The notes under the pieces: generated by a model | Databases searched by the model: none | Seen by the model: the letters and a program-made list of their open reading frames with translations, nothing else | Told to the model about the DNA's origin: nothing | In this document: piece by piece, positions 8,351-40,047 of the stretch | How the letters are laid out: the number at the start of each line of letters is the position of its first letter | How positions within the stretch are numbered: position 1 is the stretch's first letter | Source of the DNA: a virus | Length of the DNA stretch: 41,118 bases | Strand: one strand, 5' to 3' | Virus record (IMG/VR): IMGVR_UViG_3300012362_000001 | Span: 1 to 41,118 of that record | Position numbers and translations under genes: made by a program

Positions 8351-8775
8351 GCGTGTTGCACTCAGCTGGATTCGGGTGGGTCCCTGACGCGCTTATAGCC
8401 AGTGCAGGCAAAGGAGTGGCGTCGAACGCTGACTGGGGACCTTTTCCACAGGATCGGTACATCTGGGGTATCCAGGGGGATCTGTACACGAGCTTGGCCG
8501 TGCCACCAATGGTAGCGATTGACGATTACGCTAAACGCATCGCTGACATGGGGGTTACGGTCACCAACGCGCAAACTGGCGAGATCATCTTGCAAAAGGG
8601 CGTGGACCACTATGACAACGCACCGACGCTCAATGATCGTCCGCATTTCTTCCCGAGACCGTTCTTGCTCGCGAAAGGCCAAAGCCTTCACATGAGCGCA
8701 CACGCGGAAAACGGGTACGGCGGAACGTTCGGGTTCAATGCGTGCGTAATTGTCTTTTTCACCTACGAGCCATGA
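8347..8775 (+). CDS. Hypothetical protein (142 aa)
   Basis: ATGA-coupled ORF. The antisense ORF 8362..8808 is judged spurious. Confidence 0.65.
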   Translation: MSVLHSAGFGWVPDALIASAGKGVASNADWGPFPQDRYIWGIQGDLYTSLAVPPMVAIDDYAKRIADMGVTVTNAQTGEIILQKGVDHYDNAPTLNDRPHFFPRPFLLAKGQSLHMSAHAENGYGGTFGFNACVIVFFTYEP

Positions 8776-8897
8776 GCGCCGAGATACCGGACAGGCGCTA
8801 TATCCCAAATAACAATAGGTGCATTCACTGTGGCCGCCCTTGGGTTGCTTTCCCTTCTATCTGTCCTGATTGCGTAGAGGTTTGCTTGTGTCATTAG
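8772..8897 (+). CDS. Possible tiny zinc-ribbon ORF (41 aa)
   Basis: ATGA-coupled. RCIHCGRPWVAFPSICPDC gives CxxC...CxxC. It would overlap the 5' end of the portal ORF, so the portal may start at GTG 8888. Confidence 0.3.
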   Translation: MSAEIPDRRYIPNNNRCIHCGRPWVAFPSICPDCVEVCLCH

Positions 8898-10900
8898 AAA
8901 TCTTTAAACAGATCAAGTCCGATATCGAAGAGCGGCGCATGTGGGAGGACAGGCAAGCGACAGCGTACAAGCTCCGGTTTGGTCAAGTCAAGCGGCGCAC
9001 GAAACCCTTTAAAAACGCTGCGGATTACACCTGGCCGCTCGTGGACATGTACATCGAGAAGCAGAAACCTGCCTACGTCGAGCAGGCGCTCGGACCGGAG
9101 CTGATAGCTTCATTCTTCAGCAAGAACCCGCAAGGCGACGGATTCACGCACGCGGTTGCCGAGTGGTTCGATTATCGCGTAAAACAGAAGAGCAACTTCA
9201 TCAAGGCTCTTTACCACGTGATTGATCAGCACATGCAAGGTGGCAAAGGGTTCCTGAAGACCTACTGGGATTGCGATCTAAACTGTGTCCGGCACCAGAT
9301 GATCCCAGGGCCGCTCTTCGTCGTACCGCCGTGGACTGAAGAAATTGACGATGGATACTCGAAAGCCGACCGGGCGTGCCACATCATGCACATGTCGACG
9401 CTGACATACGAGCGGCTCGGGCAGACATTGGGGTACAATCTGGACGAAGATTTTATCAAGTCGATATCCGGACGCGGCGAAGAGAAGATGTACGAGCAGG
9501 CCAAGGAACTTAAGGAAGGTATCGCGTACCACAAGAAAGACGACATGATCGTTTTGTGGGAAGTCTACGAACGGTTGCCATCCGGCAAACTTAAGATCCA
9601 CACATTTAGCCCGATGCAGCCCGAAGAAAAGGTGCGTGATGATTTCATGTTCCCCTACGACCATGGAAGAATACCTATCGTGGCTTACGATTTTGAGATT
9701 ACTGATCCCGGATTCTACTCTACGCGAGGGGTATCGGAGATCCTGGCATTGCCGCAGAGCATCCTGAAAATGCTATTGGATATGCAGATGGATTACATGA
9801 TCTACTGCAACCGGCCGGTCTGGAAACCAGGGCCAACAAATCCAGGAGTAAATTACGAGAACCTCGAGATTGTTCCAGGCCAAGTGATCAACGCAGACGT
9901 AGTACCGCTTGAATGGCCGCAGCCCACAATCGACTTCTTCCAGGCACAAGAACAGATTCGTTCGGTCTGGGAACAGAGAATGGGATCGGCGGACTATGGT
10001 ATTGGGAACGAAGAGCAGCAAGGCGAGGGGCACAAGACGGCCACCGAGATTGTCCAGCTCGGCGCGGTCAAAGAGAGCACGGCAACACTAAAGGGCAGGT
10101 TCTTCGGCGGCTCGCTTACCGAGAGCCTGAAAATGCATTGGTCGCTTGAACTGCAATACTGCAAAAATGATCTGAAGTACTTCTATCAACGGGAATACAA
10201 GCAGCTCGATCAAGGAGCATTGCGAGATTATTACCAGCTTGAGGTCAATGGCGGGAAGGACGGATACTCGCGCGAGAAGCATCTCCAAAAACTGATTCAG
10301 CTTTGGCAAACGTTCCAGCAAAGCCCGAATGTAAACCTACCAGAGCTTGTGCGCCTAATCCTTGAGAATGTCGATACTCAACTTGCGAAAACGCTATTCG
10401 TTCCGACTGATGTTGGCCAGAACGATCAGATGGAAAAGCAGGCGAACGAGATTAACGCAATGAAGCTCGGTTTTAACCCGCAACCTGACCCTGACGACAA
10501 CCACATTGCGCATATCCAGGCCATTGAAGTATTTAAACAGTACGCGCGCGGCAACCCGCAGGCGCAGGTAGGACCGGATGTCCAGATCCGAATCATGCAG
10601 CACGAGGACGCGCATATCGCAGCCGAGAAACAAGAGAACCCGCAACAGTACAAGGCGAATAAGCCCATGCTGGACAAGATCACAAGCGACAATAAAGCGC
10701 TCGTTCACGCTATCGCTCGAACTGTTGAGCAAGCCCTCCGCCAGCAATCGCCAAATGGCGAACAAACATCAGCTGGACAGCCTGGGCCTCCGGGACCCCA
10801 ACCCGGCGCAACCCAGGTACCTGCTGCGCCTCCGCCAGGTCCACCTATTGGATCGCCCACAGCAGGCATGCAAGGTTCGCCTCCGAGAACCTTTGTCTAG
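8870..10900 (+). CDS. Portal protein
   Basis: 676 aa, the largest ORF between terminase and the scaffold/capsid pair. It has a Pro/Gly-rich C-terminal tail. The call rests on size and synteny. The start is uncertain (TTG 8870, GTG 8888 or ATG 8939). Confidence 0.8.
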   Translation: MRRGLLVSLEIFKQIKSDIEERRMWEDRQATAYKLRFGQVKRRTKPFKNAADYTWPLVDMYIEKQKPAYVEQALGPELIASFFSKNPQGDGFTHAVAEWFDYRVKQKSNFIKALYHVIDQHMQGGKGFLKTYWDCDLNCVRHQMIPGPLFVVPPWTEEIDDGYSKADRACHIMHMSTLTYERLGQTLGYNLDEDFIKSISGRGEEKMYEQAKELKEGIAYHKKDDMIVLWEVYERLPSGKLKIHTFSPMQPEEKVRDDFMFPYDHGRIPIVAYDFEITDPGFYSTRGVSEILALPQSILKMLLDMQMDYMIYCNRPVWKPGPTNPGVNYENLEIVPGQVINADVVPLEWPQPTIDFFQAQEQIRSVWEQRMGSADYGIGNEEQQGEGHKTATEIVQLGAVKESTATLKGRFFGGSLTESLKMHWSLELQYCKNDLKYFYQREYKQLDQGALRDYYQLEVNGGKDGYSREKHLQKLIQLWQTFQQSPNVNLPELVRLILENVDTQLAKTLFVPTDVGQNDQMEKQANEINAMKLGFNPQPDPDDNHIAHIQAIEVFKQYARGNPQAQVGPDVQIRIMQHEDAHIAAEKQENPQQYKANKPMLDKITSDNKALVHAIARTVEQALRQQSPNGEQTSAGQPGPPGPQPGATQVPAAPPPGPPIGSPTAGMQGSPPRTFV

Positions 10901-21112: not shown

Positions 21113-22435
21113 ATGGCCTCAGCGCTCACAGACTGGAAAGCGGCTTCGGCAAACCCGGAAGCTTATAGCCAGGACCAGCTTCAATCGATGGCGATGGCGG
21201 CCGGGATCGGTATACCAGAGCTGCAAGAGGCCGTCCGGAGAGGATTCGCAACTAATCAGGCTAAGCTCGCAGATTATAAGCCGCCTGAGATCAAGGCTTC
21301 CGAAGATATCGCGAAGATCGACCCTGCCGCTGCTGCGCTTACGTCGACAGTCGCCAACGCGTATAACACACAGGTTCCGCAAGCGCAGGCGACTTCGCCC
21401 GCGACTGCTGCGCTTAATACGGCCGTTGTTAATTCGTACAACCCGACTCTGGCGGCAGCTCACGCGCAGTTGCCAGGGACAAGCGCCCTGTCAGGAGATG
21501 TCCTCAACAGCTACAACACCTCTCTGGGGCAGGCCAATAAAGAACTCGCTCTAGGGACGCATCTCGACCCGGCTATGCAGCGCGAGATTGCGCAATACGT
21601 GAGGGGGGCCCAGATAGGCCGCGGAAATTCAGAGGGCGGCGCGCAGACTGTCGAGGAAGCAATGACCCAAGGCGGAGCTGGTCTAGCACTCCAGCAACAA
21701 CGCCGAGCATACGCTCAAGCCGTTCAACAGCAGGGCGCACAGCTGGCAGGCGCGCGGCAGAGCTATCTAGGAGCCGTGCAGGGTCAGGGCCAGGGGCTTG
21801 TAGCGCAGCAACAGAACTATTTACAGAACGTTCTCCAGCAGGCGACAGGATATCTGGGCAGCGGCCAGACGAAAGGCGGCCAGGCGACAACCTACCTCAA
21901 TAATGCGATTAACCAGAATAGCGCGGCCCTGGGCGGGTACCCGATTGGGCAGAATGCGCAACCACCGGCTCCTGCTTACATGTACCTGGACCCGAATGCA
22001 GGCGCGCAATTCGCTCAAGGCACCCAAGGATTCATGAATCAAGGGGTAGGCGCTACGACTGGAAGCCCTGGAAGCACGGTTCCCTGGGGCTCTATCGCCG
22101 GGGCCGCCGGTAGTGCAATAGGCGGATTAGCTGGATCATTCATCACGCCAGGGGTTGGTACGGTAATCGGAGCTGGCCTCGGCGGACTGGCTGGCACCGC
22201 AATCGGTCAAGGTGCCAGTGCCAGTGGTGTCCATTGTTGGGTAGCGCGCCAGGTGTTCGGCGAGAATAATCCTCGCTGGCTGCAATTCCGTAACTGGCTG
22301 CTCACTAGAGCGCCCACATGGCTCATGCAATTTTACGCGCGAAACGGGCAACAGCTCGCCGAGCGCATCAAAAACAAACCAAGAATACAACGTGTAATCA
22401 AGGGCTGGATGGAAATGCAGCTCGCAACTATTTAA
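21113..22435 (+). CDS. Internal-virion candidate with peptide repeats, a glycine zipper and a Trp-rich C-terminal module
   Basis: 440 aa. Three copies of AL(T/N/S)xxVxN(A/S)YN(T/P) and four xYL repeats. Glycine-zipper segment GSIAGAAGSAIGGLAGSFITPGVGTVIGAGLGGLAGTAIG, then HCWVARQVFGENNPRWLQFRNWLL. Confidence 0.75.
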   Translation: MASALTDWKAASANPEAYSQDQLQSMAMAAGIGIPELQEAVRRGFATNQAKLADYKPPEIKASEDIAKIDPAAAALTSTVANAYNTQVPQAQATSPATAALNTAVVNSYNPTLAAAHAQLPGTSALSGDVLNSYNTSLGQANKELALGTHLDPAMQREIAQYVRGAQIGRGNSEGGAQTVEEAMTQGGAGLALQQQRRAYAQAVQQQGAQLAGARQSYLGAVQGQGQGLVAQQQNYLQNVLQQATGYLGSGQTKGGQATTYLNNAINQNSAALGGYPIGQNAQPPAPAYMYLDPNAGAQFAQGTQGFMNQGVGATTGSPGSTVPWGSIAGAAGSAIGGLAGSFITPGVGTVIGAGLGGLAGTAIGQGASASGVHCWVARQVFGENNPRWLQFRNWLLTRAPTWLMQFYARNGQQLAERIKNKPRIQRVIKGWMEMQLATI

Positions 22436-23859: not shown

Positions 23860-24041
23860 GCATCCACATTAAAGCGAAGAACAAGGGAAAGTTTACAGCG
23901 TTCAAGAAGCGGACCGGGGATACGACCGCGGAAGCTCTGCATTCAAAGGATCCGCACGTACGCCAGATGGCCAACTTTGCCAGGAACGCGAAAAAATGGA
24001 ATCACGGCGGAAAGAAAAGCCCTAAAAGGAGTTATCGGTGA
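23856..24041 (+). CDS. Small basic protein (61 aa)
   Basis: ATGA-coupled. K-rich, ending ...KKSPKRSYR, similar to the C-terminus of the 91-aa protein. Confidence 0.55.
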   Translation: MSIHIKAKNKGKFTAFKKRTGDTTAEALHSKDPHVRQMANFARNAKKWNHGGKKSPKRSYR

Positions 24042-25072
24042 GCTGGTTTGATACCGCCCTGGCTGCTTGGTACCGCTCTAAGGAGCAGGAGCGCGCTATT
24101 AACGCGCAGGGGATTGAGCAAGCAGGACAAGCTTTGACGCAAGGCTTGCAACAGGCCAGGCAGGACAATATCGCAAATCAAGTATCTCGATCGCTAGTAA
24201 ACTCCGGGGCTTATGCTGATCAGAACTCAGGTGCCAACGCGCCTCGGGCGGGACTAGTGAGCGCTGGCACAAATCCAATCACGGGCGCAGTAAATAGAGT
24301 AGCTGCGGGAGTACCGACGGCGGGAACTGCTCCTGTTGGCGGTGGCGGAGGCATGCTTGGATTCCAACTGCGCAACGCATTGGCTAACCAAGGCGTCGAG
24401 AGGGATCTCAAACGCGCCCAGATAGGCTATTACGGAGCGCACGGGGCCGCTGCATTGCAGGGTGCAGCGTCGAATGAATCTTGGCGCAAATCAGAACAGG
24501 ATCGAGCGGATGCTCAGGCCGCAGCTATTAGGGCCGCTACTGCTGGTGGAGGCCCTGCCGCGGCGAGGACTCAAGCGCAAGCGCAAAGAGATGCGCTGAT
24601 GCAGGCACAGAAGGACGCAGAAGCAAAAGCGCAGACACCGGAAACTCTAATGCGCGATTTTGACGTGAATCATGGGAAAGGCGCAGCTCAATCCTTTTAT
24701 GATGCATATACGAACAATACCGGAGCGCGAGGCGATTTCTCAGGTGGTAAATGGATCGGGAACCCGAACGGGCCGTTATTTACTGCAGACCCAGAGGCGC
24801 AGGCATATGGGCAACCTCCAAACGCGGCTGATATAAAAGCGGTTCCGATTACGGAGCTCGACGCTTACAGAACGAACTTACAAAAAGTTCAAGCAGCAGG
24901 CGGAAGGATTGTTCCGCCGATCGTAATGCCAGCACAAGCACCCGGACAGTCAGCACCAGCGCAAGGTGGGAGCGTTCCGACATTTCAAACTACTCAGCAG
25001 GCATTGCAAAGCGGACTTCCGCGCGGCAGCCCGTTCCAAGATCCAACTGGCACAATCCGATACATGCCGTGA
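24038..25072 (+). CDS. A/Q/G-rich protein (344 aa), internal-virion candidate
   Basis: GTGA-coupled. Low-complexity helical composition similar to 20636..22435. Confidence 0.7.
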   Translation: MSWFDTALAAWYRSKEQERAINAQGIEQAGQALTQGLQQARQDNIANQVSRSLVNSGAYADQNSGANAPRAGLVSAGTNPITGAVNRVAAGVPTAGTAPVGGGGGMLGFQLRNALANQGVERDLKRAQIGYYGAHGAAALQGAASNESWRKSEQDRADAQAAAIRAATAGGGPAAARTQAQAQRDALMQAQKDAEAKAQTPETLMRDFDVNHGKGAAQSFYDAYTNNTGARGDFSGGKWIGNPNGPLFTADPEAQAYGQPPNAADIKAVPITELDAYRTNLQKVQAAGGRIVPPIVMPAQAPGQSAPAQGGSVPTFQTTQQALQSGLPRGSPFQDPTGTIRYMP

Positions 25073-25073
25073 T

Positions 25074-27791
25074 ATGGCTGCAGGCGAAGTTCTTCTTAAT
25101 GGAGCGCAGTTAGATGATGGCGGGACAACCAGTCATGCTACTGCTCCAAACGTGCTCGATGGGAATTCTCTCACCTATTGGCATACTGATCCTCAGGCCA
25201 ATACTGGGTATGTCGGAATCGATGCTGGAGCATCGTGCTCACTTACGCGAGTAAGGTTGTCGGCATTTGGAGGCTCCGAGGACGCATTGGTTGGCGGGTT
25301 AGTGCAAGGCGGTTCGTCCAGCGCATTTGCGCAACAATTAGGATTTCAGCAGGCTAATGGCGTAGGAGTAAACGCCACCAATCAAACCAGTGTTCCAGTC
25401 ATCTTTACTGGCGTCCAAACCGCAGGAAATGCCAACATCATTTTCATTTTCAGCAGCGCTTCCGCGGTTATAAGCGGAGTCACCGATACTAAAGGTAACG
25501 TATATACGTTCTTGTATAGGGATAATGTCGCGTCTGGTGCACACGTATCTTGTTACATTGCCACTGGAATAGTCGCTGCCCTTGCTAATGCCAATACGGT
25601 TACAGTTTCCTTGTCAACTGCCAGCGATTATCCTACAGTATTCATATCTGAGTATTCTGGTATTTCCGGAACAGGTTTGGCCACAATAAATGCTCATTCG
25701 TCTAATAGCGGGACCGGTACAGCTATTGATTCTGGCAACATAACGACGACTAATCCAAATACTGTATTAGTGTCTATAGGTGGATTCGGTGATTCACCCG
25801 CAGTAAGCACTGGTCCAGGATTCATACTGAATAAAAACCTTTCTCCGTGGGGCGCGGTGATGGAAGAAAGGCCGGTAATAAGTACCGTTACATCGTCAGG
25901 TTCATTCACTATTAGTACTAGCCAAAGCTGGAATTGTACAGTGGCGGCGTTTAATTTGACTGGCGTATACGATCCAAATGCGTTCCTATTTGTCGCGGCC
26001 AGGCCGCTTACAGGAACCTTGTTAAACGAGTACTCAATTACAGCCGCTCCGCTATTTCGTTATTATCGTTATAGTGCCCCATCTGCCTCCAACGGCAACC
26101 TGGCTGATCTTGATTTAATCGTACAATACACGGCGGGTGTAACTGCAGCAGCGGTATCGCCAACCATACTGCCAACTGGCCGCTCTTTCGATTTGCCGAC
26201 AGTTATAACCCTTAGCAGCATAACAACGGATGCGGCCATTTATTACACCTTAGATGGCACCACGCCAACTGTTGGTTCGATTCTATATAATGCTCCGTTT
26301 GTATTGAGCGCCAGTGCCACACTTAAAGCTATAGCCGTTAGTCCAGGACTCACCAATAGTCGTGTAACGAGCACGAAGTTTAACATACCATCAAGTCTAG
26401 TGTCACTGAATAGTCAAATCGATGACCGAAATTATAAGACATGGGCTGTTGATCCCTTTTTTTTCCTAGATCCTAATAGTGGTTGGTGGTACATGTATGG
26501 AATCAACCTTGATTGTAACGGGATTGCTACATTCGGCTATCTAGGAGTTGATACATATAAATCTGCCGATTTGCGTAACTGGATATTCGTTAACACAGTT
26601 ATAGGTCCATCGCTTGGTACTCAGGTGAACAGTTCCACTTACTTCGCACGCCCTTGGGTGGCGTATAATGCATCTACTGCAAGATACGTCCTGTGGATTA
26701 ATTCTGCGAGTCGGCCAACTGTGTATACGGCTCCATCGCCAGAAGGGCCGTGGACGTTTGTTGCACAATATACCAGCTTAAATGGATGGATTAGCAATGG
26801 AGATCCGTGCTGGTTTTTAGATTCGGATGGAATTAGTGCATACTTGGTATTCACTTCTAATTTCAACGCTGTGTTCAATAAGCTCACGGCCGCATGGACT
26901 AATGTAGATGGAGTCAACTTTGCGTCCTATGATGTAGCATCGACATTTGGCGAACAGGGCGGCTCAGGAGACGGGACAAAATTAGATGGTCCGCACATGT
27001 TTAAGAGGGGAAATACCTATTTCTTCATGTCCAACGCGCAATGGAATTGGGCTCCTATGGTGAATTGCTACGCAACCAGCTCTAATCCTCTAGGGCCGTG
27101 GACAAATAAAGGGAACCCGTTTCAGGCGGTGCAGGGTGGCAACCCGGATAATTCTGTTGCATTTGGTGCTCAAAATAATTATCCAATATTCATTCCTGGA
27201 AGGAACGCATTTATCTATACTGGCGATGCGTACAATACTGGGCTACCCGGCACTGTCAGCACGTCCACTACGGCTAATTTCCAGGCATGCACGTTGTTTT
27301 ATCTTCCTATCATTTTTCCTACGGCGTCCACTATGTCCATAGCATGGAATCCATCATGGGCACTGGATAACGTATTCCCGACGTTATCGGGAGCTCCGGT
27401 TGCACCCAATAATCTAAAGTTGAGTACTTTGGGAAGTGTTACGGCAGGAATTAAGATCAGTTGGAATAATTCTGAACCGAATCCTCATGCGCTCTACGTA
27501 GATCGCTCTAGCGACATGCTTTGGACTATCGGAGTCAGATCCTATTCTGTGCCATTCGGAGCAACATCATTTACGGATACATTCGCGGTTCCTGGCCAAA
27601 AGTACATTTATCGCGTGCGAGCAGTTAACGCGAATGGCACCGCTAATTCGCCGGACGTAACGTCCGGAGGAACATTGGTGACATTCAGGCCATCTAAAGC
27701 AAGGCGGCTTTACAATCTGGAATTGCTAAAGGATGAAATGACGAAGGATGAATACGCCAAACGCGAAGCGTCGATTCTAAATGAGCGATGA
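25074..27791 (+). CDS. Tail spike or fibre with a GH43-like five-bladed propeller
   Basis: 905 aa from ATG 25074 (track ORF 24966..27791). The N-terminal discoidin-like segment is NVLDGNSLTYWHT. A chitobiase-C-like beta-sandwich follows (AAIYYTLDGTTPTVGSILYNAPFVLSASATLKAIAV). GH43-like blades are DPFFFLDPNSGWWYMYG, GDPCWFLDSDGISAYLVF and LDGPHMFKRGNTYFFMSN. The C-terminus is an FN3 domain. Confidence 0.85.
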   Translation: MAAGEVLLNGAQLDDGGTTSHATAPNVLDGNSLTYWHTDPQANTGYVGIDAGASCSLTRVRLSAFGGSEDALVGGLVQGGSSSAFAQQLGFQQANGVGVNATNQTSVPVIFTGVQTAGNANIIFIFSSASAVISGVTDTKGNVYTFLYRDNVASGAHVSCYIATGIVAALANANTVTVSLSTASDYPTVFISEYSGISGTGLATINAHSSNSGTGTAIDSGNITTTNPNTVLVSIGGFGDSPAVSTGPGFILNKNLSPWGAVMEERPVISTVTSSGSFTISTSQSWNCTVAAFNLTGVYDPNAFLFVAARPLTGTLLNEYSITAAPLFRYYRYSAPSASNGNLADLDLIVQYTAGVTAAAVSPTILPTGRSFDLPTVITLSSITTDAAIYYTLDGTTPTVGSILYNAPFVLSASATLKAIAVSPGLTNSRVTSTKFNIPSSLVSLNSQIDDRNYKTWAVDPFFFLDPNSGWWYMYGINLDCNGIATFGYLGVDTYKSADLRNWIFVNTVIGPSLGTQVNSSTYFARPWVAYNASTARYVLWINSASRPTVYTAPSPEGPWTFVAQYTSLNGWISNGDPCWFLDSDGISAYLVFTSNFNAVFNKLTAAWTNVDGVNFASYDVASTFGEQGGSGDGTKLDGPHMFKRGNTYFFMSNAQWNWAPMVNCYATSSNPLGPWTNKGNPFQAVQGGNPDNSVAFGAQNNYPIFIPGRNAFIYTGDAYNTGLPGTVSTSTTANFQACTLFYLPIIFPTASTMSIAWNPSWALDNVFPTLSGAPVAPNNLKLSTLGSVTAGIKISWNNSEPNPHALYVDRSSDMLWTIGVRSYSVPFGATSFTDTFAVPGQKYIYRVRAVNANGTANSPDVTSGGTLVTFRPSKARRLYNLELLKDEMTKDEYAKREASILNER

Positions 27792-30700
27792 TTGGAGCCA
27801 GTTTCCGACAACGCCTCCGGCAGAACATGACTGGAGCGCATTCCCGACAGAGGCACCAGCTGCGAATGATCCGGTGCAGAGCGAGGAACTTTTTCAGCCG
27901 GACACTTCAGGTTCAAGGCGTTTAAACGCTAGATTTAATAATCCTGGAGCATTGGGGTTATCGCCTCTTGGCCGGTCATTTGGAGCGACCGCATCAGGGG
28001 TATATGACACCGGGCATCCTTTTGCCGCATTTCCTACGAAGGAGGCTGGGGCTGCTGCACAGTTTTCCTTATGGCAAAACAGAGAGCACTACCTTGGCCA
28101 CACGTTAAGGGACGCTATTACAAATTGGATAGGACCTGGTGAACATGGCGAGGCTGAGTACATATCACAAAAGACTGGCATACCGTTACATCAGCCAATT
28201 ACCGCTGAGTTATTAAGAAGTCCGCAAGGAATCAGGTTAATGCAGGCTCAAGCCCAGTATGAGGGCCAGAATGTTTTAAGCCCGGAAGAATGGCAGCGCG
28301 CGCAGGATAGGGCTTACAATCATCCACATGGCAGGCAGGATGCAGTCAGGAATAATTTGGCAGATATGGCGCGCCAAATTTCATCGGGTCAAACACCAGC
28401 AATCCCTGATGCCGGCTCAGACGACTGGAGCGCTTTCCCGACAACTTCGCCACAGCCACCGCAGAAACAGGCGCAACCACCAGATAGAAATCTAGTCGAT
28501 GACGGAACCGAGACCGGCAGGAACGCGCGCGCTATCGCAGGAGCACCGGCGCAGCCTCAAGACTGGTCAGCATTCCCGACTACACCTCCTGCACCCCAAG
28601 ATGTTCCACGTGGAACACAAGAGGCTATTACTGGAACTGGAACCAAACAACAATCAACACAAACAGAACAATCATCACAACCACAAGAATTCCAGCCCCA
28701 GAAATCATATTCGCAAGCTACGCAATTTGAGCCTGAGACACAACCACCGCAGGATACCGCATTCGATACGGTCCATAAAACGGTCCAGAACTTCTGGGAG
28801 AACGCGAAACAGAGCGCGGCGCAACTCAACCTCGGGGCGCAAGAGGGAAGCGCTTACAACCCGACGCTGCCCACTGATCCGATTGAACAGGAAATCAGGG
28901 CTACTCAAGCGAGTACGATCTTAAGCGATGAGCAGAAAGCCCAGACTATCGCGGCTTTGCGTAAAGGCCAGACGACAGTTCAAGCCAACCGAATGGGGTC
29001 AATCGCCACCGAGAAGGCCAATATCGCACAGGCTGAGGCCGCAAAGCCAGATAAAGCGTTCCAGCAAGGCGTTCTGGGCCAGGTAAGCTCGTTCGCGGGT
29101 CAAGCAACCCCTTACCTGGCAAGCGGCGCTGCAGGGCCCATTGCGCCGATTCTAATGGCCACACAGATGACAGCAGGCGCGTACGCTAGCGCAATTGACC
29201 GTTCAACCGCCGATATCAAGCGCTTGCATCCAGACTGGGATGATGCGCGGGTGCTTACCGAGGCCAATGCTGTAGCGAACGAAAGCGGAAAAGCGGCTGG
29301 CTTAAGCGGGCTGGCGCTTTCTCTGATTCCGATCCCGGTCGCTGGCCCGCTCATTGCGCGCATTGTGGAGAGAATGGGCATATCAGGCGCAACCATTGCC
29401 ATTGCTCAAGTTTATGCTGGAGCACAGGAAAATATTGCACTTAAAAAGAGCATTAATCCTAGCCAGGACGTATACGAGGGCCTCGACCAGCTCGCAAAAA
29501 CTGGCTTCGTTCAAGGTTTAGCTTTCGGCGGCGCTCATGCTCTTGGAGAGATTGGGATAGGCGGTGCAGTACCTCAACGGCCTGCAGCAGAAGTTCCGAG
29601 ACCGGAGAAAACGCAGGTAACGCCGCCTCCACCAGAGCCAAGGCCTGAAGCACAAACGCAAACGCAACCGCAACCCCAAGGGCAAGCAGCGGCCGTAATT
29701 GAGGATAACGGTGAATCGGTCGAAGAGAGAACTCCTGCACCAACTCCACCAACCCCAGAGCGAATAGCCAGGGCTTACGTAAAGATCGGAGGAAAAGTTT
29801 ACGAGGGACCAAGCCATCCCATGGCGCTCCAGCAATATCTGGAAGCAACCGGTCTGGATCAGAATCCATATTCTTTAGGGGCTGATTACATCGATAGGCA
29901 AGGTGGGACGGAAGGATTCGTTACGAATACCGGTAGGCTGGTGAACGCGGATGAAGCCCATAGGATAGCCACGGCCAGTAACCAGATAACGCCGGGTTAC
30001 ACTAGGGAGCCTGGTATGCCAGCCCTCGTTTCAGAGCAGGTATCAGATACATATCCAAGGGGAGCCAATGAACCGGCCGAATTCTATTCCGGTATCCCGC
30101 TGCCGAAAATCGGGCCGATGATCGAATCTCCGATCGGCCGTGCGATACGCGAGACAGTATTGCCTAACCGGGAAGTCGTAGCGCAATATCCGCACACGGA
30201 CCAACTGCTGACGCAGCTCGATCAATTCCGGGCCGAGCAAGGAGAATTGCAAGGCCGGGTTGCGCAGCTCAACCACCTTTACGGACAGCTCGAAAAGAAG
30301 AATCCGAAGCTGACAGACGAGATCAATTCTATCGGCAAGTATGTCGAGGAGAATCAAGCATTGCCATCCAAGATGAGCCCGGAAGCGCAACGATGGCTAA
30401 ATGAGGCGAATAACGGCCTGTACCGCGATATTGGAGACAGGATGCGAGCAGGCGGATTCAAGACTGTGCTACCCGACGGAACAACGCGGCCGTTTATTGG
30501 CGCTCCACCGGACGTCACCCCGTTCCCTCGCATCATGCGGCCAGATGTCGCCGATGTGCTCGATAACAAGGAGCTCACCGACGCTCAAGGTCGCCTAACG
30601 CCGGAAGCAAGGGCAATCTACGACGAGGGGGTCAGGACGATTAATAAAAATACTGGCAACCCGTTCTTCTCAAGCGAACAGGATTTATTGGATTTGGCCG

Positions 30701-32586
30701 ATCAGCGACGTGCGGCAAACGAAATGAACGCCAAAAACAATCCAGCGATGAGCGGATTAGAGAAGGCGCGAGTCGTCAAATATCCATCCTTTTTCTATAC
30801 CTATAGCCCGCAAGCGATGCTCGACACCATGATGAGGCAATCGACCGAGATCGCGCGCCTCAACGCTTTCGGGCAGAAGATCGGGCGAGCGCCGGATCTA
30901 TTCGATAAGACTGAAGAAGCGATTAATAAGGATCTAAGTCTAAGTGGGAACAAGATTAAAAGCGCCGTAAACTCCATCGGGGACTTGCGTAGCTTCGTTT
31001 ATGGCACCAATCGCCGGGGAGCGGCAACACGGATACTTCGCGGGATCTCAAGCGCAGGCCTCGCGGGTAGCCCGCACACGAGCACCAAGATTGGCCTTTC
31101 AATGCTTTTCAATGTGCCTGCTTATCGCGGGCTGGGACGCACGCTTAGCGGAATCCTCAACACCTCTTTCCGCTACAGCCAGAACATGACCGAGCTCCGG
31201 CGCCTGGGGCTTTCCAACGATGTCATACTCAACCTGCATGATGACCCAACCGCGGTGACGACAGCAGAGCAGAAGGCGAGCAATATCTTTACTGGTGTTC
31301 TGCGGGTCGCGGGCCATGCTCTGGCACAAGATATCGGCAAAAGCGTCACGGCGGCCGCATCGAAGTCTTGGCTGACTAAGTTTGCAATTCCGAAATTGCA
31401 ATCAGATCCAGGAATGACCCGCGGGATCACCAGAATGATCGCAGCGGACATTAGGCGTCGCGGAATGGATCCGGCAGCTTTCAAAGCTCCGAACATTGAC
31501 CCGAAACTGGTCGACCGTTTTATCCGCGAGGACGTGAACGATATCCAAACCGCCTACCGGCCAGAGGATTATCCCGCATGGGCAAGCAAGAGCGAGCTGG
31601 GCTCCCTGGCGTTCCAGTTTGGGCACTGGGCATATAACGGAGCCAGGACCATCATCCGTGATTCAGTCATGCCAATGGCGCGCGCAGCGCAAAATAATGA
31701 TTTCTCGCTCGTCGGCCACTACATGGGACGCCTCGCCGGTATTGCCCTTGCTTCTGCTGGAGCAAGCGAAGCGTGGCGTCAGGTTGATAAGCTTTTCGGA
31801 GGAAGCTCGAACGTCGCGACAATCGCAGAAATCACGCAGGCTTTCATTCGCGGGAACCCGGCAGCAGCGCACCTTCTAGTCAATCGACTGGTCCAGGATA
31901 TCATTGGGGCGCCTACAATCGGTATGTTCGGCGACATTGCAAATTGGGTAAAAGGCATCGCGAGCGGAACCGCTGACACAACGCATTTCTTCAATCCATC
32001 GGCACCGGCAGGCTTCGGATATCTGAAGATTATGCTGACAGCGACCAACCAGGCAATGCAGCAAGGAGGCAAGCTATCTGACCGCCAAAAAGCGAATTTC
32101 GCTTCACAGTTGGCCGGGCTTGTAAAAGGTTACTACGATCTCGCGAACACGGTGCAGGCGCCATTACCGGGCCACGCTGAGGCAATGGGACGCCGGGAGG
32201 ATAAATTCGTCAAGAGCAGGCTCGATCTCTTCTATCAGGAAAATCCCGCATGGGACAAGCGAATGAAAGGAGGCACATTCGCCGGGAACGTGCACACGCC
32301 GTATCTGCAAAACCTCAATGAAGCTCTGATCTCAGGCAACGCGACAAGCGCGAGACAAATCATGCGCCAAATGCAGAAAGATCTAAAGCTTGACTCGAAG
32401 CAGCTTGAGACATCGGTCAGGGAAAGTGTGCGCTCTCACGAGCCGATGCCTACCGGGAAGGCGGGGCAAGCCTTTAGCCTGTGGGCTCGACGGACTCTAA
32501 CCCCGGACGAAACGCAGAGGATGCGAGCGATCCAGGGGGTGTACTCGCGGACGGCGACCCGGGCGGGGATTGCGTTAAAGGAATAA
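27781..32586 (+). CDS. Giant internal-virion / ejection-type protein (1601 aa)
   Basis: The longest ORF. It carries four DWSxFPT motifs and an N-terminal NNPG-containing globular domain (aa about 50-190). P/Q-rich linkers and hydrophobic membrane-like segments (aa about 440-590) follow, then a long helical C-terminal part. Size and position resemble podovirus ejection proteins. Confidence 0.9.
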   Translation: MSDDWSQFPTTPPAEHDWSAFPTEAPAANDPVQSEELFQPDTSGSRRLNARFNNPGALGLSPLGRSFGATASGVYDTGHPFAAFPTKEAGAAAQFSLWQNREHYLGHTLRDAITNWIGPGEHGEAEYISQKTGIPLHQPITAELLRSPQGIRLMQAQAQYEGQNVLSPEEWQRAQDRAYNHPHGRQDAVRNNLADMARQISSGQTPAIPDAGSDDWSAFPTTSPQPPQKQAQPPDRNLVDDGTETGRNARAIAGAPAQPQDWSAFPTTPPAPQDVPRGTQEAITGTGTKQQSTQTEQSSQPQEFQPQKSYSQATQFEPETQPPQDTAFDTVHKTVQNFWENAKQSAAQLNLGAQEGSAYNPTLPTDPIEQEIRATQASTILSDEQKAQTIAALRKGQTTVQANRMGSIATEKANIAQAEAAKPDKAFQQGVLGQVSSFAGQATPYLASGAAGPIAPILMATQMTAGAYASAIDRSTADIKRLHPDWDDARVLTEANAVANESGKAAGLSGLALSLIPIPVAGPLIARIVERMGISGATIAIAQVYAGAQENIALKKSINPSQDVYEGLDQLAKTGFVQGLAFGGAHALGEIGIGGAVPQRPAAEVPRPEKTQVTPPPPEPRPEAQTQTQPQPQGQAAAVIEDNGESVEERTPAPTPPTPERIARAYVKIGGKVYEGPSHPMALQQYLEATGLDQNPYSLGADYIDRQGGTEGFVTNTGRLVNADEAHRIATASNQITPGYTREPGMPALVSEQVSDTYPRGANEPAEFYSGIPLPKIGPMIESPIGRAIRETVLPNREVVAQYPHTDQLLTQLDQFRAEQGELQGRVAQLNHLYGQLEKKNPKLTDEINSIGKYVEENQALPSKMSPEAQRWLNEANNGLYRDIGDRMRAGGFKTVLPDGTTRPFIGAPPDVTPFPRIMRPDVADVLDNKELTDAQGRLTPEARAIYDEGVRTINKNTGNPFFSSEQDLLDLADQRRAANEMNAKNNPAMSGLEKARVVKYPSFFYTYSPQAMLDTMMRQSTEIARLNAFGQKIGRAPDLFDKTEEAINKDLSLSGNKIKSAVNSIGDLRSFVYGTNRRGAATRILRGISSAGLAGSPHTSTKIGLSMLFNVPAYRGLGRTLSGILNTSFRYSQNMTELRRLGLSNDVILNLHDDPTAVTTAEQKASNIFTGVLRVAGHALAQDIGKSVTAAASKSWLTKFAIPKLQSDPGMTRGITRMIAADIRRRGMDPAAFKAPNIDPKLVDRFIREDVNDIQTAYRPEDYPAWASKSELGSLAFQFGHWAYNGARTIIRDSVMPMARAAQNNDFSLVGHYMGRLAGIALASAGASEAWRQVDKLFGGSSNVATIAEITQAFIRGNPAAAHLLVNRLVQDIIGAPTIGMFGDIANWVKGIASGTADTTHFFNPSAPAGFGYLKIMLTATNQAMQQGGKLSDRQKANFASQLAGLVKGYYDLANTVQAPLPGHAEAMGRREDKFVKSRLDLFYQENPAWDKRMKGGTFAGNVHTPYLQNLNEALISGNATSARQIMRQMQKDLKLDSKQLETSVRESVRSHEPMPTGKAGQAFSLWARRTLTPDETQRMRAIQGVYSRTATRAGIALKE

Positions 32587-36091: not shown

Positions 36092-36316
36092 ATGAACAAG
36101 ATGTTAGTGATGAGTCCTCTTGGGCACGCATTGCAGCTTACTCCTTGCGGGGACAACGAGAATGTGTTCGTGGAAAGGCCGATAGAGATTAATTTACATC
36201 AGGCGAAGTACACCCAAATGTTGGCTGAAAATAACTGGCTGGTAAGAGAGGGATTTGTTGAGCTAGCCATAGGCAGTATAACGCTCGAACCTAACCCTGA
36301 ATTGGAAGCACTATGA
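36092..36316 (+). CDS. Hypothetical protein (74 aa)
   Basis: ATG ORF whose stop overlaps the next ATG. Confidence 0.6.
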   Translation: MNKMLVMSPLGHALQLTPCGDNENVFVERPIEINLHQAKYTQMLAENNWLVREGFVELAIGSITLEPNPELEAL

Positions 36317-37455
36317 AAGAAGAACGAGCAGGTTTAGGCAGTGGCAGTGGATACGCCAGGGATAAGCATTGCGCCGCTAATCGCAAGATGGAGCGTATTG
36401 CCAAGGAGACCGGAAAGGAGCCGCCATCAGAAAAGGACGCGGAGGACGGGGACGTCGTTCACCAAATTCTTGTTTATCCAGATCCCGCTCACCCTTGTCA
36501 TCCTAGAAATGTAACTCCCGAGCAATATGAATCGGCAATGTTTCTTGCCGACAGGCAGGCCAAAATCTGGGATGAGTTTTTAGCCGGTAGGGTAGGCGGA
36601 GGAATCACGCCGCCAATAAGAGAAAAGCGTTTCTGGCTATACAAGGGTATCACACCGATACGCTCAAGTAAGCCTGATTTTGTTCTAATCGTGATGGAGC
36701 CTGACGGCGCCGATATCCTGATAATAGATCACAAAACCGGGCACGCGGAGATTGAACCACAAGAGGCTGACACATGGGCGCAGCTGGAGGAGTACGCCCT
36801 CACGGTCGCAATCAACACGCAGCATCCAAGGGGGATCAAACGCGTTCGGGCTGTGATCAATTCGCGTTGGAGCGGGGTGCACAGCAAGGATTTTCCGCCA
36901 GAGTACTTAATCGCTGTTCATCGAGAGCTTTTGGCGACGATAGCAGCCGGTGGCGTGAAAGATCCTAAGGCCACGCCGGGCTGGTACTGCCGATACTGCT
37001 CCGGCCGTCTGGTTTGCCCATCGGCCGTGCTTGAGATCGAGCTCGTGGAACGCAGGACGGCCTTGCCGTTACCGGAAGGAAAAGAGGGCGAGGTGTTTAT
37101 TGATCAAGTTAAACGAGTCAACTCGCTGTGTGATCAGATCCTAAGGCATTACAAGAAACGGCTCTACGCTGAACCTGGATGCGTAGGCGCATGGCAGGTA
37201 AGCGAGGGGGATGAGTACCGATCAATCAAGGATCTGGAGGGTGCATTCATGGCGCTAGTGAGCGACGGCCGCATTACCCAGGACGAATTCATGGAATGCT
37301 GCGATGGACACATAGGCAAGCTTGAAAAGAAGTATTGCAACAGGGCTAAGAAACCAGCGGTCCAAGCGAAGCAAGATTTCAACGATCTACTGGCAGACTG
37401 CATCGAGATGAAGCGCAGGGCAGGGTCCTTAGAGAAAGTGAAGGAATTGACATGA
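36313..37455 (+). CDS. PD-(D/E)XK exonuclease, Cas4/RecB-like, with an Fe-S-type cysteine signature
   Basis: 380 aa. Contains ...DFVLIVMEPDGADILIIDHKTG (D...D-x-K) and QLEEYAL (the QxxxY motif). There is one N-terminal Cys (KHCAA) plus a C-terminal CRYCSGRLVC (Cx2Cx5C). Confidence 0.85.
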   Translation: MKEERAGLGSGSGYARDKHCAANRKMERIAKETGKEPPSEKDAEDGDVVHQILVYPDPAHPCHPRNVTPEQYESAMFLADRQAKIWDEFLAGRVGGGITPPIREKRFWLYKGITPIRSSKPDFVLIVMEPDGADILIIDHKTGHAEIEPQEADTWAQLEEYALTVAINTQHPRGIKRVRAVINSRWSGVHSKDFPPEYLIAVHRELLATIAAGGVKDPKATPGWYCRYCSGRLVCPSAVLEIELVERRTALPLPEGKEGEVFIDQVKRVNSLCDQILRHYKKRLYAEPGCVGAWQVSEGDEYRSIKDLEGAFMALVSDGRITQDEFMECCDGHIGKLEKKYCNRAKKPAVQAKQDFNDLLADCIEMKRRAGSLEKVKELT

Positions 37456-38008: not shown

Positions 38009-38698
38009 ATGAATATTACATTTAAAACACTGCCAAAGGGTGATCGCAAAGATGCCCGGCAACCCGCAACAATACTTGAACCGTGCCCATTCTGCGGCGC
38101 GAAAGGATTCCTTGGCGCTGAGGCCACTTACTCACATAACGCCAGGGCTGGGGAAATGGATTACGCGATTCGGTGTGGCAATTGCGATTCGCTCGGTCCA
38201 TGGGGTGCAACGGCATATGTCGCGGCTAGTCTCTGGAACAAGCGGGAAGAGCCTCGGAACACACATCGCGGAAGATCGGCAGTCGTAAAGGTGGCCACTG
38301 CGGCCATCGTAGCGCTGTTGGCGTTCATGGTGCCAGTGCAAGCAGGGGAAGACTGGAGCGCATTTCCGACAACTCCACCCAATGTAGGGAATAATCGTTT
38401 CTGGTGCTATGACAGCAGGTATTTTTCTTATCAGGATTCTCCTAAACCTGCGGCTCAAGTTATTGACTCGAGTCCTGGAGTGATAGATGACCCGGCCTGT
38501 CGAGGGCTGATAGTTGCCCAGCTTAAAGATGTAAATAGCACGGTAGCTGATTGGATAATTGAATACAACCGGGCGTTCATGCTGCCGGATAGTAACGGCG
38601 GCGCTAACGTTTATCATGCCACCAACCGAAAGAACGGCAAGATCTGGGAGATAATCGTTGCTTTCCATTTTGAACAGGTACAGGCGCATGACAAATGA
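38009..38698 (+). CDS. Lar-like zinc-ribbon domain, TM segment, DWSAFPTTPP motif and C-terminal domain
   Basis: 229 aa. LEPCPFCGAKG...IRCGNCDSLGPWGATAYVAASLWNKR matches the Lar restriction-alleviation family pattern. The TM segment is VVKVATAAIVALLAFMVPV. GEDWSAFPTTPP starts at aa 113. Confidence 0.8.
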   Translation: MNITFKTLPKGDRKDARQPATILEPCPFCGAKGFLGAEATYSHNARAGEMDYAIRCGNCDSLGPWGATAYVAASLWNKREEPRNTHRGRSAVVKVATAAIVALLAFMVPVQAGEDWSAFPTTPPNVGNNRFWCYDSRYFSYQDSPKPAAQVIDSSPGVIDDPACRGLIVAQLKDVNSTVADWIIEYNRAFMLPDSNGGANVYHATNRKNGKIWEIIVAFHFEQVQAHDK

Positions 38699-38891: not shown

Positions 38892-39110
38892 ATGATCGAC
38901 TGGGACAAAGCTGAGATTCACGACATTCAGCGCTTCGGGAAATGGCTCTACTGGGCTGAGGAATGGGCCACGTTCAAGACTCAGACCAATGACGAGCTTA
39001 AGGAATCGTGGCGCTGTGAGCTCCGGTACGTCATGCTCGAGCAGGACAGGCTGCGCGAAGCGATCAACGCCCGGAAATGCATGTACACGAGCCGGGGACC
39101 GTCAATGTGA
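38892..39110 (+). CDS. Hypothetical protein (72 aa)
   Basis: ATG directly after the upstream stop. Confidence 0.55.
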   Translation: MIDWDKAEIHDIQRFGKWLYWAEEWATFKTQTNDELKESWRCELRYVMLEQDRLREAINARKCMYTSRGPSM

Positions 39111-39123
39111 TGCACCCCGTTGC

Positions 39124-39151
39124 TTGACATGTGGAACGCATGTGGTAAAGC
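39124..39151 (+). promoter_or_regulatory. Candidate internal promoter upstream of the methyltransferase
   Basis: TTGACA (39124-39129), 16 nt, then TAAAGC (39146-39151). It shares TTGACATGT-N13-TAAAG with the promoter candidate at 33602. Confidence 0.35.
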
Positions 39152-39171
39152 GTAAACAAAACGTTTATGAC

Positions 39172-40047
39172 ATGAGGAAATACAAGATTAATGCCGTAGA
39201 GGCTCAACTCGAGCTTTTCTCAGCGGAAGCGGCAGAGATAAGGAAGTTGCATACCGAACTTTTAGGGCACGTTCGAATTACGATTAAACAAGCGATTCGA
39301 ATAGGGGAATTGCTTACGGCCGTCAAGGAAGGGCTCGAGCACGGCCGCTGGCTGCCGTGGCTCAAGGCTAATGTCGAGTTTCACGAAAGAACGGCTCGCA
39401 GATATATCCGAGTCTTCGAGAACCGAGAACAACTCAAAACGGACAGCGTGTCCGATTTGACGGACGCCTACCGGCTGCTGGCGGATAAAGTGCCTAGAGA
39501 AGAAAAGCAGGCCAGGGACTTCGCTGATTTCGAGTGGCCACAAGGTAAATTTAGGGTGTTGTATGCTGATCCTCCGTGGACATACAACGATCATAGATTA
39601 GGCAGCGTGGATGGAGGAGGAGCCACGGGAACATACAGCACAATGTCTTTAGAGGGAATTTGCAACCTTGACATACCCAATATCGCATTGCCTGACTCGG
39701 TCTTGTTTTTATGGATAACTTCACCTTTACTTCCTGATGGGCTCACCGTTATGGGTAGATGGGGTTTTACTTATAAAGCGAGTTTTATTTGGGATAAGGT
39801 CCAAGGATTCAACGGCCATTACAATGATGTCAGGCACGAGCTTTTATTAGTTGGCACAAAGGGCACATGCCTGCCTGAAGTAAGTGAGCTTTTAGATAGT
39901 GTGATCGAAATTAAGAAAACTAATCATTCCGAAAAACCAGAGAGATTCCCTGAAATAATTGACTTACTCTACCCTAGTGGCCCACGGTTAGAACTGTTTG
40001 CCAGAAAGCAAAGAAAAGGGTGGAAATGCTTGGGCAACGAAGCCTAG
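39172..40047 (+). CDS. MT-A70-family N6-adenine DNA methyltransferase with an N-terminal DUF3102-like domain
   Basis: 291 aa from ATG 39172 (track ORF 38989..40047). Contains LYADPPWTY (the DPPW motif), FLWITSP, WGFTY...IWDK, HSEKP and LELFARKQRKGWKCLGNE. The N-terminus HGRWLPWLKANVEFHERTARRYIRV is DUF3102-like. Confidence 0.9.
   Translation: MRKYKINAVEAQLELFSAEAAEIRKLHTELLGHVRITIKQAIRIGELLTAVKEGLEHGRWLPWLKANVEFHERTARRYIRVFENREQLKTDSVSDLTDAYRLLADKVPREEKQARDFADFEWPQGKFRVLYADPPWTYNDHRLGSVDGGGATGTYSTMSLEGICNLDIPNIALPDSVLFLWITSPLLPDGLTVMGRWGFTYKASFIWDKVQGFNGHYNDVRHELLLVGTKGTCLPEVSELLDSVIEIKKTNHSEKPERFPEIIDLLYPSGPRLELFARKQRKGWKCLGNEA

Follow-up and report, generated by a model that had tools for sequence, protein, structure and literature searches.

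A repeated Trp-Pro peptide in a giant phage protein may dock onto the C-terminal tail of an upstream ejection-type protein and recurs on a predicted exported early protein

The virus record IMGVR_UViG_3300012362_000001, analysed here over its whole length of 41,118 nucleotides (the window), looks like a complete 41-kb phage contig. At the end of its structural genes lies a gene for a giant protein in which the short peptide DWSxFPT recurs, preceded by a gene for a 344-residue protein whose C-terminal tail we propose as the partner of that peptide (Table 1). The giant protein consists of an N-terminal module built around a candidate wall hydrolase, a hydrophobic middle rich in Gly, Ala and Pro, and a unique C-terminal half. 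Four copies of the peptide had been reported in it by the original prediction, made from the sequence alone, and a regular-expression search locates them where they had been placed (first residues 4, 17, 215 and 261); the coordinates given at the time are those of a 10-residue core starting at D-W, and the 11-residue strings quoted with them begin one codon upstream. Missed at the time was a fifth copy, EDWSAFPTTPP (38348..38380), which a six-frame search with the same expression assigns to a second protein, referred to below as the early protein.

Table 1. Features of the window that carry or accompany the DWSxFPT peptide and its proposed partner
Feature	Position	Strand	Remarks
344-aa ejection-type protein gene, proposed partner	24038..25072	+	Orthologous by alignment to the genes directly upstream of the giant-protein gene in contigs L001 and L002
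C-terminal tail FQTTQQALQSGLPRGSPFQDPTGTIRYMP (ends at the stop), proposed socket	24983..25069	+	aa 316-344; divergent form of the conserved tail
Giant-protein gene	27781..32586	+	1601 aa; open reading frame and translation
Motif copy 1, DWSQFPTTPP	27790..27819	+	aa 4-13, extreme N-terminus
Motif copy 2, DWSAFPTEAP	27829..27858	+	aa 17-26
NNPG domain	27892..28317	+	aa 38-179; conserved in P0002, P0003, P0005-P0008
Motif copy 3, DWSAFPTTSP	28423..28452	+	aa 215-224
Motif copy 4, DWSAFPTTPP	28561..28590	+	aa 261-270
Most hydrophobic segment of the giant protein, AGLSGLALSLIPIPVAGPLIARIVE	29296..29370	+	Kyte-Doolittle 19-residue mean 1.84-1.92; region conserved in P0002-P0004
Early-protein gene	38009..38698	+	229 aa; N-terminal Lar-type zinc ribbon, one hydrophobic helix, C-terminal part opening with copy 5
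Signal-peptide/anchor-like helix AVVKVATAAIVALLAFMVPVQA	38279..38344	+	Hydropathy 2.36 over 19 residues
Motif copy 5, DWSAFPTTPP	38351..38380	+	Two residues past the predicted cleavage/exit point
Remnant of type B motif, FSYQDSPKP	38423..38449	+	By alignment; intact in most orthologues (EPWMGDPVIT)

Given the composition of the giant protein, DWS.FPT would be expected in it 8.6e-6 times by chance and is observed four times; for the six-frame translation of the window the expectation is 4.7e-4, against five occurrences. Between copies, one to six of the six to nine degenerate codons differ at identical residues, and copies 4 and 5, which agree at 10/10 residues, use different codons at 6/9 degenerate positions, including AGC versus TCA for serine. 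Such differences indicate that selection acts on the DWSxFPT peptide and that the peptide rather than the DNA is conserved, as had been proposed. Chance, or a recent functionless duplication of DNA, draws on the low-complexity surroundings of the copies only and is set against these expected numbers, the codon differences, and the conservation of the motif in one giant-protein relative (P0004) and six orthologues of the early protein described below; we regard it as close to negligible. The disordered setting noted in the original prediction is borne out as well: 75-79% of the residues around the copies are P, Q, T, S, A, G, E or D, and AlphaFold2 assigns a predicted local distance difference test score (pLDDT) below 50 to residues 1-57 and 182-330, the stretches that carry the motif.

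Between these stretches, and bracketed by two copies on each side as described before, lies the globular, NNPG-containing domain, which AlphaFold2 models with a pLDDT of about 70-88 (residues 58-181). Its best fold match in the PDB is the catalytic domain of the Enc34 endolysin, a lysozyme-fold variant (7q47; model residues 58-181, probability 1.0, E 5e-3, TM score, a template-modelling measure, 0.63 on the target), with a model that is only moderately confident. No hydrolase match was found for the domain at the level of sequence, and the fold makes it a probable peptidoglycan hydrolase. The same domain also occurs at the C-terminus of the tape-measure-like protein P0008 and beside DPBB-like domains in P0005. 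Further along the giant protein, the most hydrophobic segment is a possible membrane-inserting element, judging by its composition. Searches with the giant protein gave no Pfam or PHROG match, and neither DNA nor protein matches in GenBank phages (tblastn, 50,697 phage records).

A metagenome protein search returned a few relatives of the giant protein, P0001-P0004 among them. P0004, encoded on the 40.6-kb contig L001, has four DWSxFPT copies at the positions seen in the window protein, whereas P0002 and P0003 have (G/N)PWDNDPVI(T/A)P in all four slots, with W aligned to W and P to P; we refer to DWSxFPT as type A and to PW..DPVI as type B. P0002 and P0003 retain the NNPG domain, and P0004 has a different domain between copies 2 and 3 (residues 25-165), with a weak match to the RlpA-like DPBB structure 9ce9 (E 0.35), such that among close relatives the putative wall-degrading domain between the motif pairs is exchanged independently of motif type. 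The related phages compared are 81-92% identical in nucleotide sequence, and contigs L002 and L003, being 99.5% identical over their 4182-bp overlap, were treated as one population. The original prediction had tied its docking idea to the motif being kept in homologues: P0002 and P0003 lack the string itself, which formally goes against the idea, but the alternative motif that fills the same slots strengthens it. Multiple copies, a disordered setting, retained positions and four slots that switched type together make a short linear docking motif under peptide-level selection well supported. The exact DWSxFPT string turned out not to be lineage-wide; it is confined to a small clade, was not found outside it, and occupies the slots of a far more widespread motif, W-x-x-[A/D]-P-[I/V]-[V/I]. 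A profile built from the five window copies gave 0 matches at E<=0.001 among 1.84 billion representatives, a profile too short to show absence and one that did not recover even a relative of the query. Neither a scan of metagenome contigs with the giant-protein alignment nor a scan of viral contigs with the early protein returned relatives, and by these sequence scans the window's clade is absent from both collections.

Type B was followed with DNA patterns in viral contigs and metagenome contigs, and in metagenome proteins. In every coding case the PWDNDP-type motif starts at residue 3-5, as M-[AKSP]-[NL]-P-W-D-N-D-P-[IV], and the large proteins that carry it, 612 to more than 2567 residues long, have 2-3 copies in tandem; they come from phages of many lineages with a G+C content (GC) of 0.40-0.64. 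When the motif was relaxed, a regular expression matched 100 times in 757,637 residues of open reading frames (ORFs), 91 of these matches falling within the first 60 residues of the ORF. On this sequence evidence, more than 100 contigs of uncultured phages encode large internal proteins that begin with W-x-x-[A/D]-P-[I/V]-[V/I] as a tandem element at the N-terminus; we call this element the plug. One such protein, P0016, has a lysozyme-type domain after the motif (PHROG endolysin, E 1.8e-32); P0016-P0018 came from a word-indexed search with concatenated motifs, which returned six proteins and missed known multi-copy proteins.

The plug has a constant companion. At every PWDNDP-type locus, the gene directly upstream ends with the tail [DE]-Y-x-x-L-P-x-G-x-x-[FY]-x-D-P-x-G-x-x-R-x-K-[PKR] followed by the stop codon. 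Scanning viral contigs for this tail alone gave at least 120 contigs, and among the matches listed 104 of 119 lie at the very C-terminus of the ORF; the distinct tails listed that have exactly six residues beyond DPxG number 75, with R third in 73/75, K fifth in 75/75 and Pro last in 51/75. The N-terminus encoded by the next gene was then read at each tail: among the matches listed, 80 of 84 distinct N-termini have a Trp in the first 10 residues, 70/84 fit W..x[PAST][IVLAT] and 43/84 hold two or more copies in the first 60 residues. Their consensus is M-[AG]-x-W-[EQRD]-[DNE]-[AD]-P-[IV]-[VI], with Pro at +4 from the Trp in 61 of the 80 listed, Ile or Val at +5 and +6, and Ala or Asp before the Pro in 71/80. 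The plug and tail consensus gave weak or no matches in GenBank phages. In Roseophage SIO1 (NC_002519, 8794..9070), the frame of gp25 runs on after its stop for about 90 codons to a tail ending ..FYNSLPSGSYFIDPSDGKTYRKP; the annotated gp24 start overlaps this continuation, and the plug position would be matched by starting gp24 later, at MTSAWNKGQTL. This reading frame points to a probable misannotation of the gp25/gp24 junction, or else to a sequencing error at the stop. Lentibacter phage ICBM1 also carries a tail.

The window shows divergent versions of both elements. Its six-frame translation holds a single match to the tail pattern, at the end of the 344-residue protein, which closes with ..GLPRGSPFQDPTGTIRYMP; DPTG is followed there by six residues, the last of them Pro. 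Compared across the clade, the tails read ..ALQSGLPRGSPFQDPTGTIRYMP at the end of the 344-residue protein, ..GLPSGSPFKNPQGQVLYMP at the end of its counterpart in L001 and ..DYAALAPGSAYYAPDGSLKRK.. in L002; in the window and L001, Met replaces the otherwise invariant Lys (..RYMP and ..LYMP before the stop) and the Tyr of [DE]-Y-x-x-L-P is absent, whereas the L002 tail has Y at the [FY] position and a basic ..LKRK end and is paired with WDNDP. On the plug side, the first Trp of the giant protein is at residue 5, copies 1 and 2 are 13 residues apart and two more copies follow. W-S-A-F-P-T-T keeps the Trp-Pro spacing of four but has Thr-Thr in place of Ile/Val, and in all five copies Phe stands before the Pro instead of Ala or Asp. 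By slot homology the window motif is a divergent relative of the plug class rather than a canonical member. The two genes that would encode the partners are adjacent in L001 and L002, their stop and start overlapping or a few nucleotides apart, but not in the window.

Two further observations tie plug and tail to each other. One is an exchange of carriers: in L063, L088, L106, L110, L112 and L120, the upstream protein (553-586 residues) ends with the W-motif (..DKPWENDPIQK or ..DAPWLRDPVKP before the stop), and the downstream protein (977-1026 residues) opens with 2-3 tandem tail elements. The other is covariation. Among the matches listed, 68 distinct pairs combine the aromatic residue of the tail with the residue before the motif proline as F-A in 37 cases and Y-D in 27, with 4 exceptions; this pair of positions scores z=53 against shuffles, and the next-best pair z=9. 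When the bodies of the upstream proteins listed were clustered at >=30% identity, 15 of the 38 clusters were pure F/A and 13 pure Y/D, 5 held both coordinated states and only 2 were F/D. Proteins with two copies follow the rule of their tail in 49/52 cases among those listed (F-A-A 25, Y-D-D 24, exceptions 3), and the swapped lineage has Y with D. Replacing a Tyr-Asp contact by a Phe-Ala contact would be chemically sensible. The window's clade straddles a recent switch, with Y and WDNDP in L002, and F and a Phe before the Pro in every copy of the window and L001; in its sequences the clade follows the logic of plug/tail covariation. Charge complementarity between the acidic WDNDP and a basic RTKR tail was rejected as a general pairing rule; it holds for the PWDNDP subset and fails in the wider class, for example in GWRDAPIVK.

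From these sequence relationships we think it probable that DWSxFPT is a clade-specific form of the Trp-Pro plug, by which the giant ejection protein would dock onto the C-terminal tail of the 344-residue protein. The original prediction had suggested a host envelope protein, a chaperone or a protease as possible partners; co-occurrence, the reciprocal arrangement and covariation favour the tail of the phage's own upstream protein. The plugs would bind the tail of about 25 residues, which probably forms a beta-hairpin around the DPxG turn, such that one giant protein could tether up to four 344-residue proteins, two on either side of the wall hydrolase, and the contact would couple consecutive components of the ejectosome in the virion core, in a trans-envelope periplasmic conduit, or in both. 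On this view, type A would represent the canonical pair re-coded in orthogonal form. That plug and tail always occur together, and that the class sits nearly always at the extreme N-terminus, would also suit a capsid-targeting or assembly signal, both elements binding portal, scaffold, core or some other third component of the phage, in the manner of the N-terminal capsid-targeting sequences of T4 internal proteins. A specific covariation of one residue with one residue is hard to obtain by this route, a packaging signal would be out of place on an exported early protein, and no covarying third protein was identified; we consider a shared third partner improbable. Less probable still is that the copies are inert linkers, or sites at which a protease frees the hydrolase domain. 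They do bracket that domain, and gp7 of P22 is N-terminally processed by a host protease (annotation, NC_002371), but protease sites need no matching C-terminal tail and would not covary with one, cleavage at residue 3-5 would remove almost nothing, and linkers are not conserved to such a degree against synonymous change.

The fifth copy adds a second setting for the peptide. The zinc ribbon of the early protein matches Pfam PF14354 over residues 23-79 (E 8.7e-9; 35.9 bits against a curated cut-off of 28.6), a match that is also precomputed for homologues. Lar itself, known from restriction alleviation, is a small cytoplasmic protein, whereas the early protein joins the ribbon to a membrane helix and to a putatively exported domain of about 115 residues bearing the docking peptide. 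The helix follows a basic stretch, RNTHRGRS, and ends in P-V-Q-A, an AxA-type signal-peptidase motif, and LLA..P.QA is conserved in the homologues. Because of the positive-inside rule and this end of the helix, the protein is predicted to have an N-in/C-out topology with copy 5 displayed in the periplasm, either signal-anchored or at a new N-terminus after cleavage. Seven homologues (P0009-P0015) have a common layout with DDWSAFP directly after ..P(L/M)(Q/H)A, and DDWSAFP is found at this very place in P0009, P0010, P0011, P0013 and P0015; one relative departs from the layout by a 30-residue insertion, and another, P0014, by a degenerate DDRSAFPRADS. P0012 is the JGI gene call on the present contig, a 135-residue product that starts inside the helix, so that initiation at an internal start might yield a separate, secreted product.

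Most orthologues of the early protein carry both motif types, DDWSAFP and, about 24 residues on, EPW(M/L)GDP(V/I)I(T/G). In the window, whose giant protein is of type A, motif A of the early protein is intact and motif B degenerate (FSYQDSP); in L001, also type A in the giant protein, both are intact; and in L002 and L003, with a type B giant protein, A is degenerate and B intact. The early-protein motif that matches the giant protein of its own phage is thus always intact (n=3 populations). A protein combining a signal peptide with a plug was not found in the partial loci of other lineages, which cover mainly structural genes.

Copy 5, lying directly after a signal or anchor helix and so probably periplasmic, is also what would be expected if the peptide docked a host periplasmic or envelope component that positions the leading end of the ejected protein and its wall hydrolase, with the early protein occupying the same host site. 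The motifs bracket a probable wall-hydrolase domain, which would have to act in the periplasm, and conservation of the class across phages of very different GC would be in keeping with a conserved target in the host; W-x-x-x-P is similar to WEYIPNV, a peptide bound by SurA, and D-P-[IV]-[IV]-T loosely resembles TonB boxes, resemblances that do not explain the tail. Host docking leaves unexplained the constant tail on the upstream product, the exchange of carriers and the tracking of F/Y with A/D, and it would require different host targets for relatives as close as those compared here. A host protein that carries or mimics the motif was not found, the scan of genome contigs giving only non-coding matches. 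We therefore hold a host partner to be unlikely, though a stronger contender than a third phage component.

If the plug docks the phage's own tail, the exported early protein would present the same plug in the periplasm and bind the same tail there. Its plug could cap the ejection proteins of superinfecting relatives and so exclude them, or alternatively seal the phage's own spent conduit; of these, a decoy that caps incoming tails would be the most economical reading of copy 5. Were copy 5 a decoy, the switching of all motif copies together would be explained. A bolder extension, which we put forward as a tentative possibility, is a programmable docking code caught in an arms race, in which early-protein decoys cap the tails of superinfecting phages, the re-coded pair of DWSxFPT and ..RYMP escaped them, and the decoys later gained the new peptide.

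Several points weigh against plug-tail docking in the window. The identity of the plug and tail proteins as ejection proteins is deduced. The window's pair, with F in the tail, F before the Pro and T-T after it, lies outside the canonical states, and it is slot homology within three genomes that places it in the class. Copies 3 and 4 lie in the interior of the giant protein, a departure from the mostly N-terminal position seen elsewhere in the class. In the window a 2.7-kb tailspike gene separates the gene of the 344-residue protein from that of the giant protein. At most loci the covarying positions are about 60 nucleotides apart across the gene junction, and linkage of two ancient junction alleles could therefore contribute to the covariation, although only one position pair is tightly coupled and copies farther away obey the rule, including those 800 nucleotides and 10 kb away in the window. 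The AlphaFold2 model of the early protein is uninformative (pLDDT 37.6), and a periplasmic copy 5 would fit a host periplasmic partner equally well.

That the giant protein acts in ejection is suggested by its architecture and by synteny. Its module stands at the end of the structural genes, among which a portal (weakly similar to the SU10_portal family) and a major head protein (covered by a PHROG) are recognisable. In other phages, the motif protein of L011 is 32% identical to EVC08_011 of Rhizobium phage RHph_N65, whose gene sits between a 'putative injection protein' and 'lysin A', and the upstream protein of L012 matches this RHph_N65 'putative injection protein'. By analogy rather than homology, the module appears to be an ejection-protein set like that of P22 (gp7, gp20 and gp16) and T7 (gp14, gp15 and gp16), with consecutive genes at the end of the structural module, the largest last, and hydrophobic segments; T7 gp16 has an N-terminal wall-degrading module, to which the candidate hydrolase domain of the giant protein would correspond. 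Unlike in P22 and T7, where there is neither a Trp-Pro plug nor a ..DP.G..R.KP tail, both elements are present here, and Pfam, PHROG and tblastn searches detected no homology between the two kinds of module; no sequence homology places the giant protein in the gp16/internal virion protein family of T7. Short terminal elements of a different sequence are found at the P22 gp20/gp16 junction as well, gp20 ending ..GGSYTSKSGIKFTVE. Podovirus ejection proteins are thought to stack into a trans-envelope conduit (PMC10883804).

The early protein invites comparison with exclusion systems. Phage-encoded superinfection exclusion that acts on the ejection step is known from Spackle and Imm of T4. In P22, the inner-membrane protein SieA is believed to interfere with the conduit of gp20 and gp16 (PMC10883804), and its escape mutations (gp20 T41I, T338I, A348T and G350D; gp16 G532W and P546S) include none at the extreme termini. 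The early protein is predicted to be membrane-anchored or exported, and it shares a peptide with an ejection protein; it is without homology to SieA, which is polytopic and has no motif in common with its targets. By analogy, an exclusion function of the early protein is purely conjectural.

Other parallels lie outside phages. In the docking domains of polyketide and non-ribosomal peptide synthases, a C-terminal element pairs with the next N-terminal one through covarying code residues, and orthogonal pairs exist; the proteins and folds are unrelated to those discussed here, where a linear peptide is repeated on one partner, with a valency of 1 to 2-4. The TolB and TonB boxes of colicins and pyocins are short peptides with Trp or beta-branched residues in disordered N-terminal regions of envelope-crossing proteins, but their consensus (DGSGWSSE; D/E-T-x-x-V) does not fit DWSxFPT, and the partner indicated here is a phage protein. 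The motif strings were not found in the papers searched, no mention of a plug/socket code was found in papers on the P22 and T7 ejectosomes and on Sulfitobacter phage ΦGT1, and no solved structure containing plug or tail was found. PDB sequence searches with the two consensus sequences gave nothing significant, the weak resemblance of the tail to the first hairpin of a PAS domain (1mzu, E 1) being a lead only; the elements fall outside all Pfam families and match a single PHROG, whose function is unknown. Both ejection proteins that assemble with one another and docking by linear motifs are known in general; the plug/tail code itself, its breadth and its possible mimic on an early protein seem not to have been described.

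Outside T7 and P22, little is understood of how the internal proteins of short-tailed phages meet, in the capsid core and again in the periplasm. The two-part signature would mark ejection-protein genes in hundreds of unannotated genomes of uncultured phages, and it predicts which proteins touch and through which residues, namely the F/A and Y/D pairs; its orthogonal peptide-tail pairs are candidate small docking tags. If copy 5 is a decoy, mimicry of an ejection-protein motif would be a new mechanism of superinfection exclusion.

Other tandem elements were seen at the plug position, namely three copies of TMFGD(E/T)AV and two of FVFED(K/E), and (I/F)xFPDGT stands at the same N-terminal position in RHph_N65 and P22 gp16; the loci of these elements are L130, L160 (MW202573, 3917..6205), L014 (RHph_N65, 8590..10716) and L161 (P22 gp16). 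In MW202573, the gene order runs from an annotated 'DNA injection protein' through a protein whose tail is hairpin-like to one with the tandem N-terminal FVFED repeats, which on its sequence is another flavour of the plug/tail layout. Taken together, these sequences suggest that ejection proteins carry several families of terminal docking elements. The type B scans also produced candidates that were discarded as non-coding or out-of-frame DNA (L007, L008, two genome-contig matches and 11/24 metagenome matches). A conserved non-coding or out-of-frame DNA element matches the tandem WDNDP pattern in L019, L022, L024, L025, L026, L033, L037 and L040; it occurs in metagenome contigs of low GC (0.33-0.37) and is near-identical across samples.

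Several neighbouring genes of the window can be described. The ORF of 941 residues between the two proposed partners (about 25075..27791) has Fn3_assoc / CHB_HEX_C_1 and GH43 domains and is, from these, a probable glycan-degrading tailspike; it probably starts at the ATG at 25075, two bases past the stop of the 344-residue protein, rather than at the mechanically listed GTG at 24966. In L002 the tailspike gene lies on the other side of the 335-residue protein gene, and it is absent from L001. Upstream in the module, a protein of 440 residues (21113..22435) has a glycine-zipper segment at residues 330-368 with a weak Pfam match and, because the zipper recalls the Gly-rich C-terminus of P22 gp7, may by analogy be a third ejection protein. 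Near the early protein are a PD-(D/E)XK nuclease (36313..37455) and, directly after its gene, an MT-A70 DNA methyltransferase with an N-terminal DUF3102 (38989..40047). No integrase was noticed in the window. The large terminase and the portal are encoded at 2553..3995 and 8870..10900, and the terminase is closest to those of Akkermansia phages (31-34% identity), a similarity that may point to a host among the Verrucomicrobiota.

In the relatives, the giant-protein gene is shorter (926-1018 residues, ending ..PCVTR) and is followed by an Endonuclease_7 gene, homing-endonuclease-like (L001 13063..13515; L002 8609..9112; L003 1415..1918), and a separate ORF of 364-504 residues, in place of which the window has its single ORF of 1601 codons. 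Neither the 504-residue ORF of L001 nor the large protein of L120 is significantly similar to the C-terminal half of the giant protein. A short element in the middle of the giant protein, GGKVYEGPSH (29788..29817), follows the pattern G-x-[IV]-[FY]-x-G-x-x-H and recurs in P0002-P0004 (..GRIFTGTWHGD, ..GVIYSGTNHGD) and in an unrelated large protein of L112 (..GKIYTGVNHQ).

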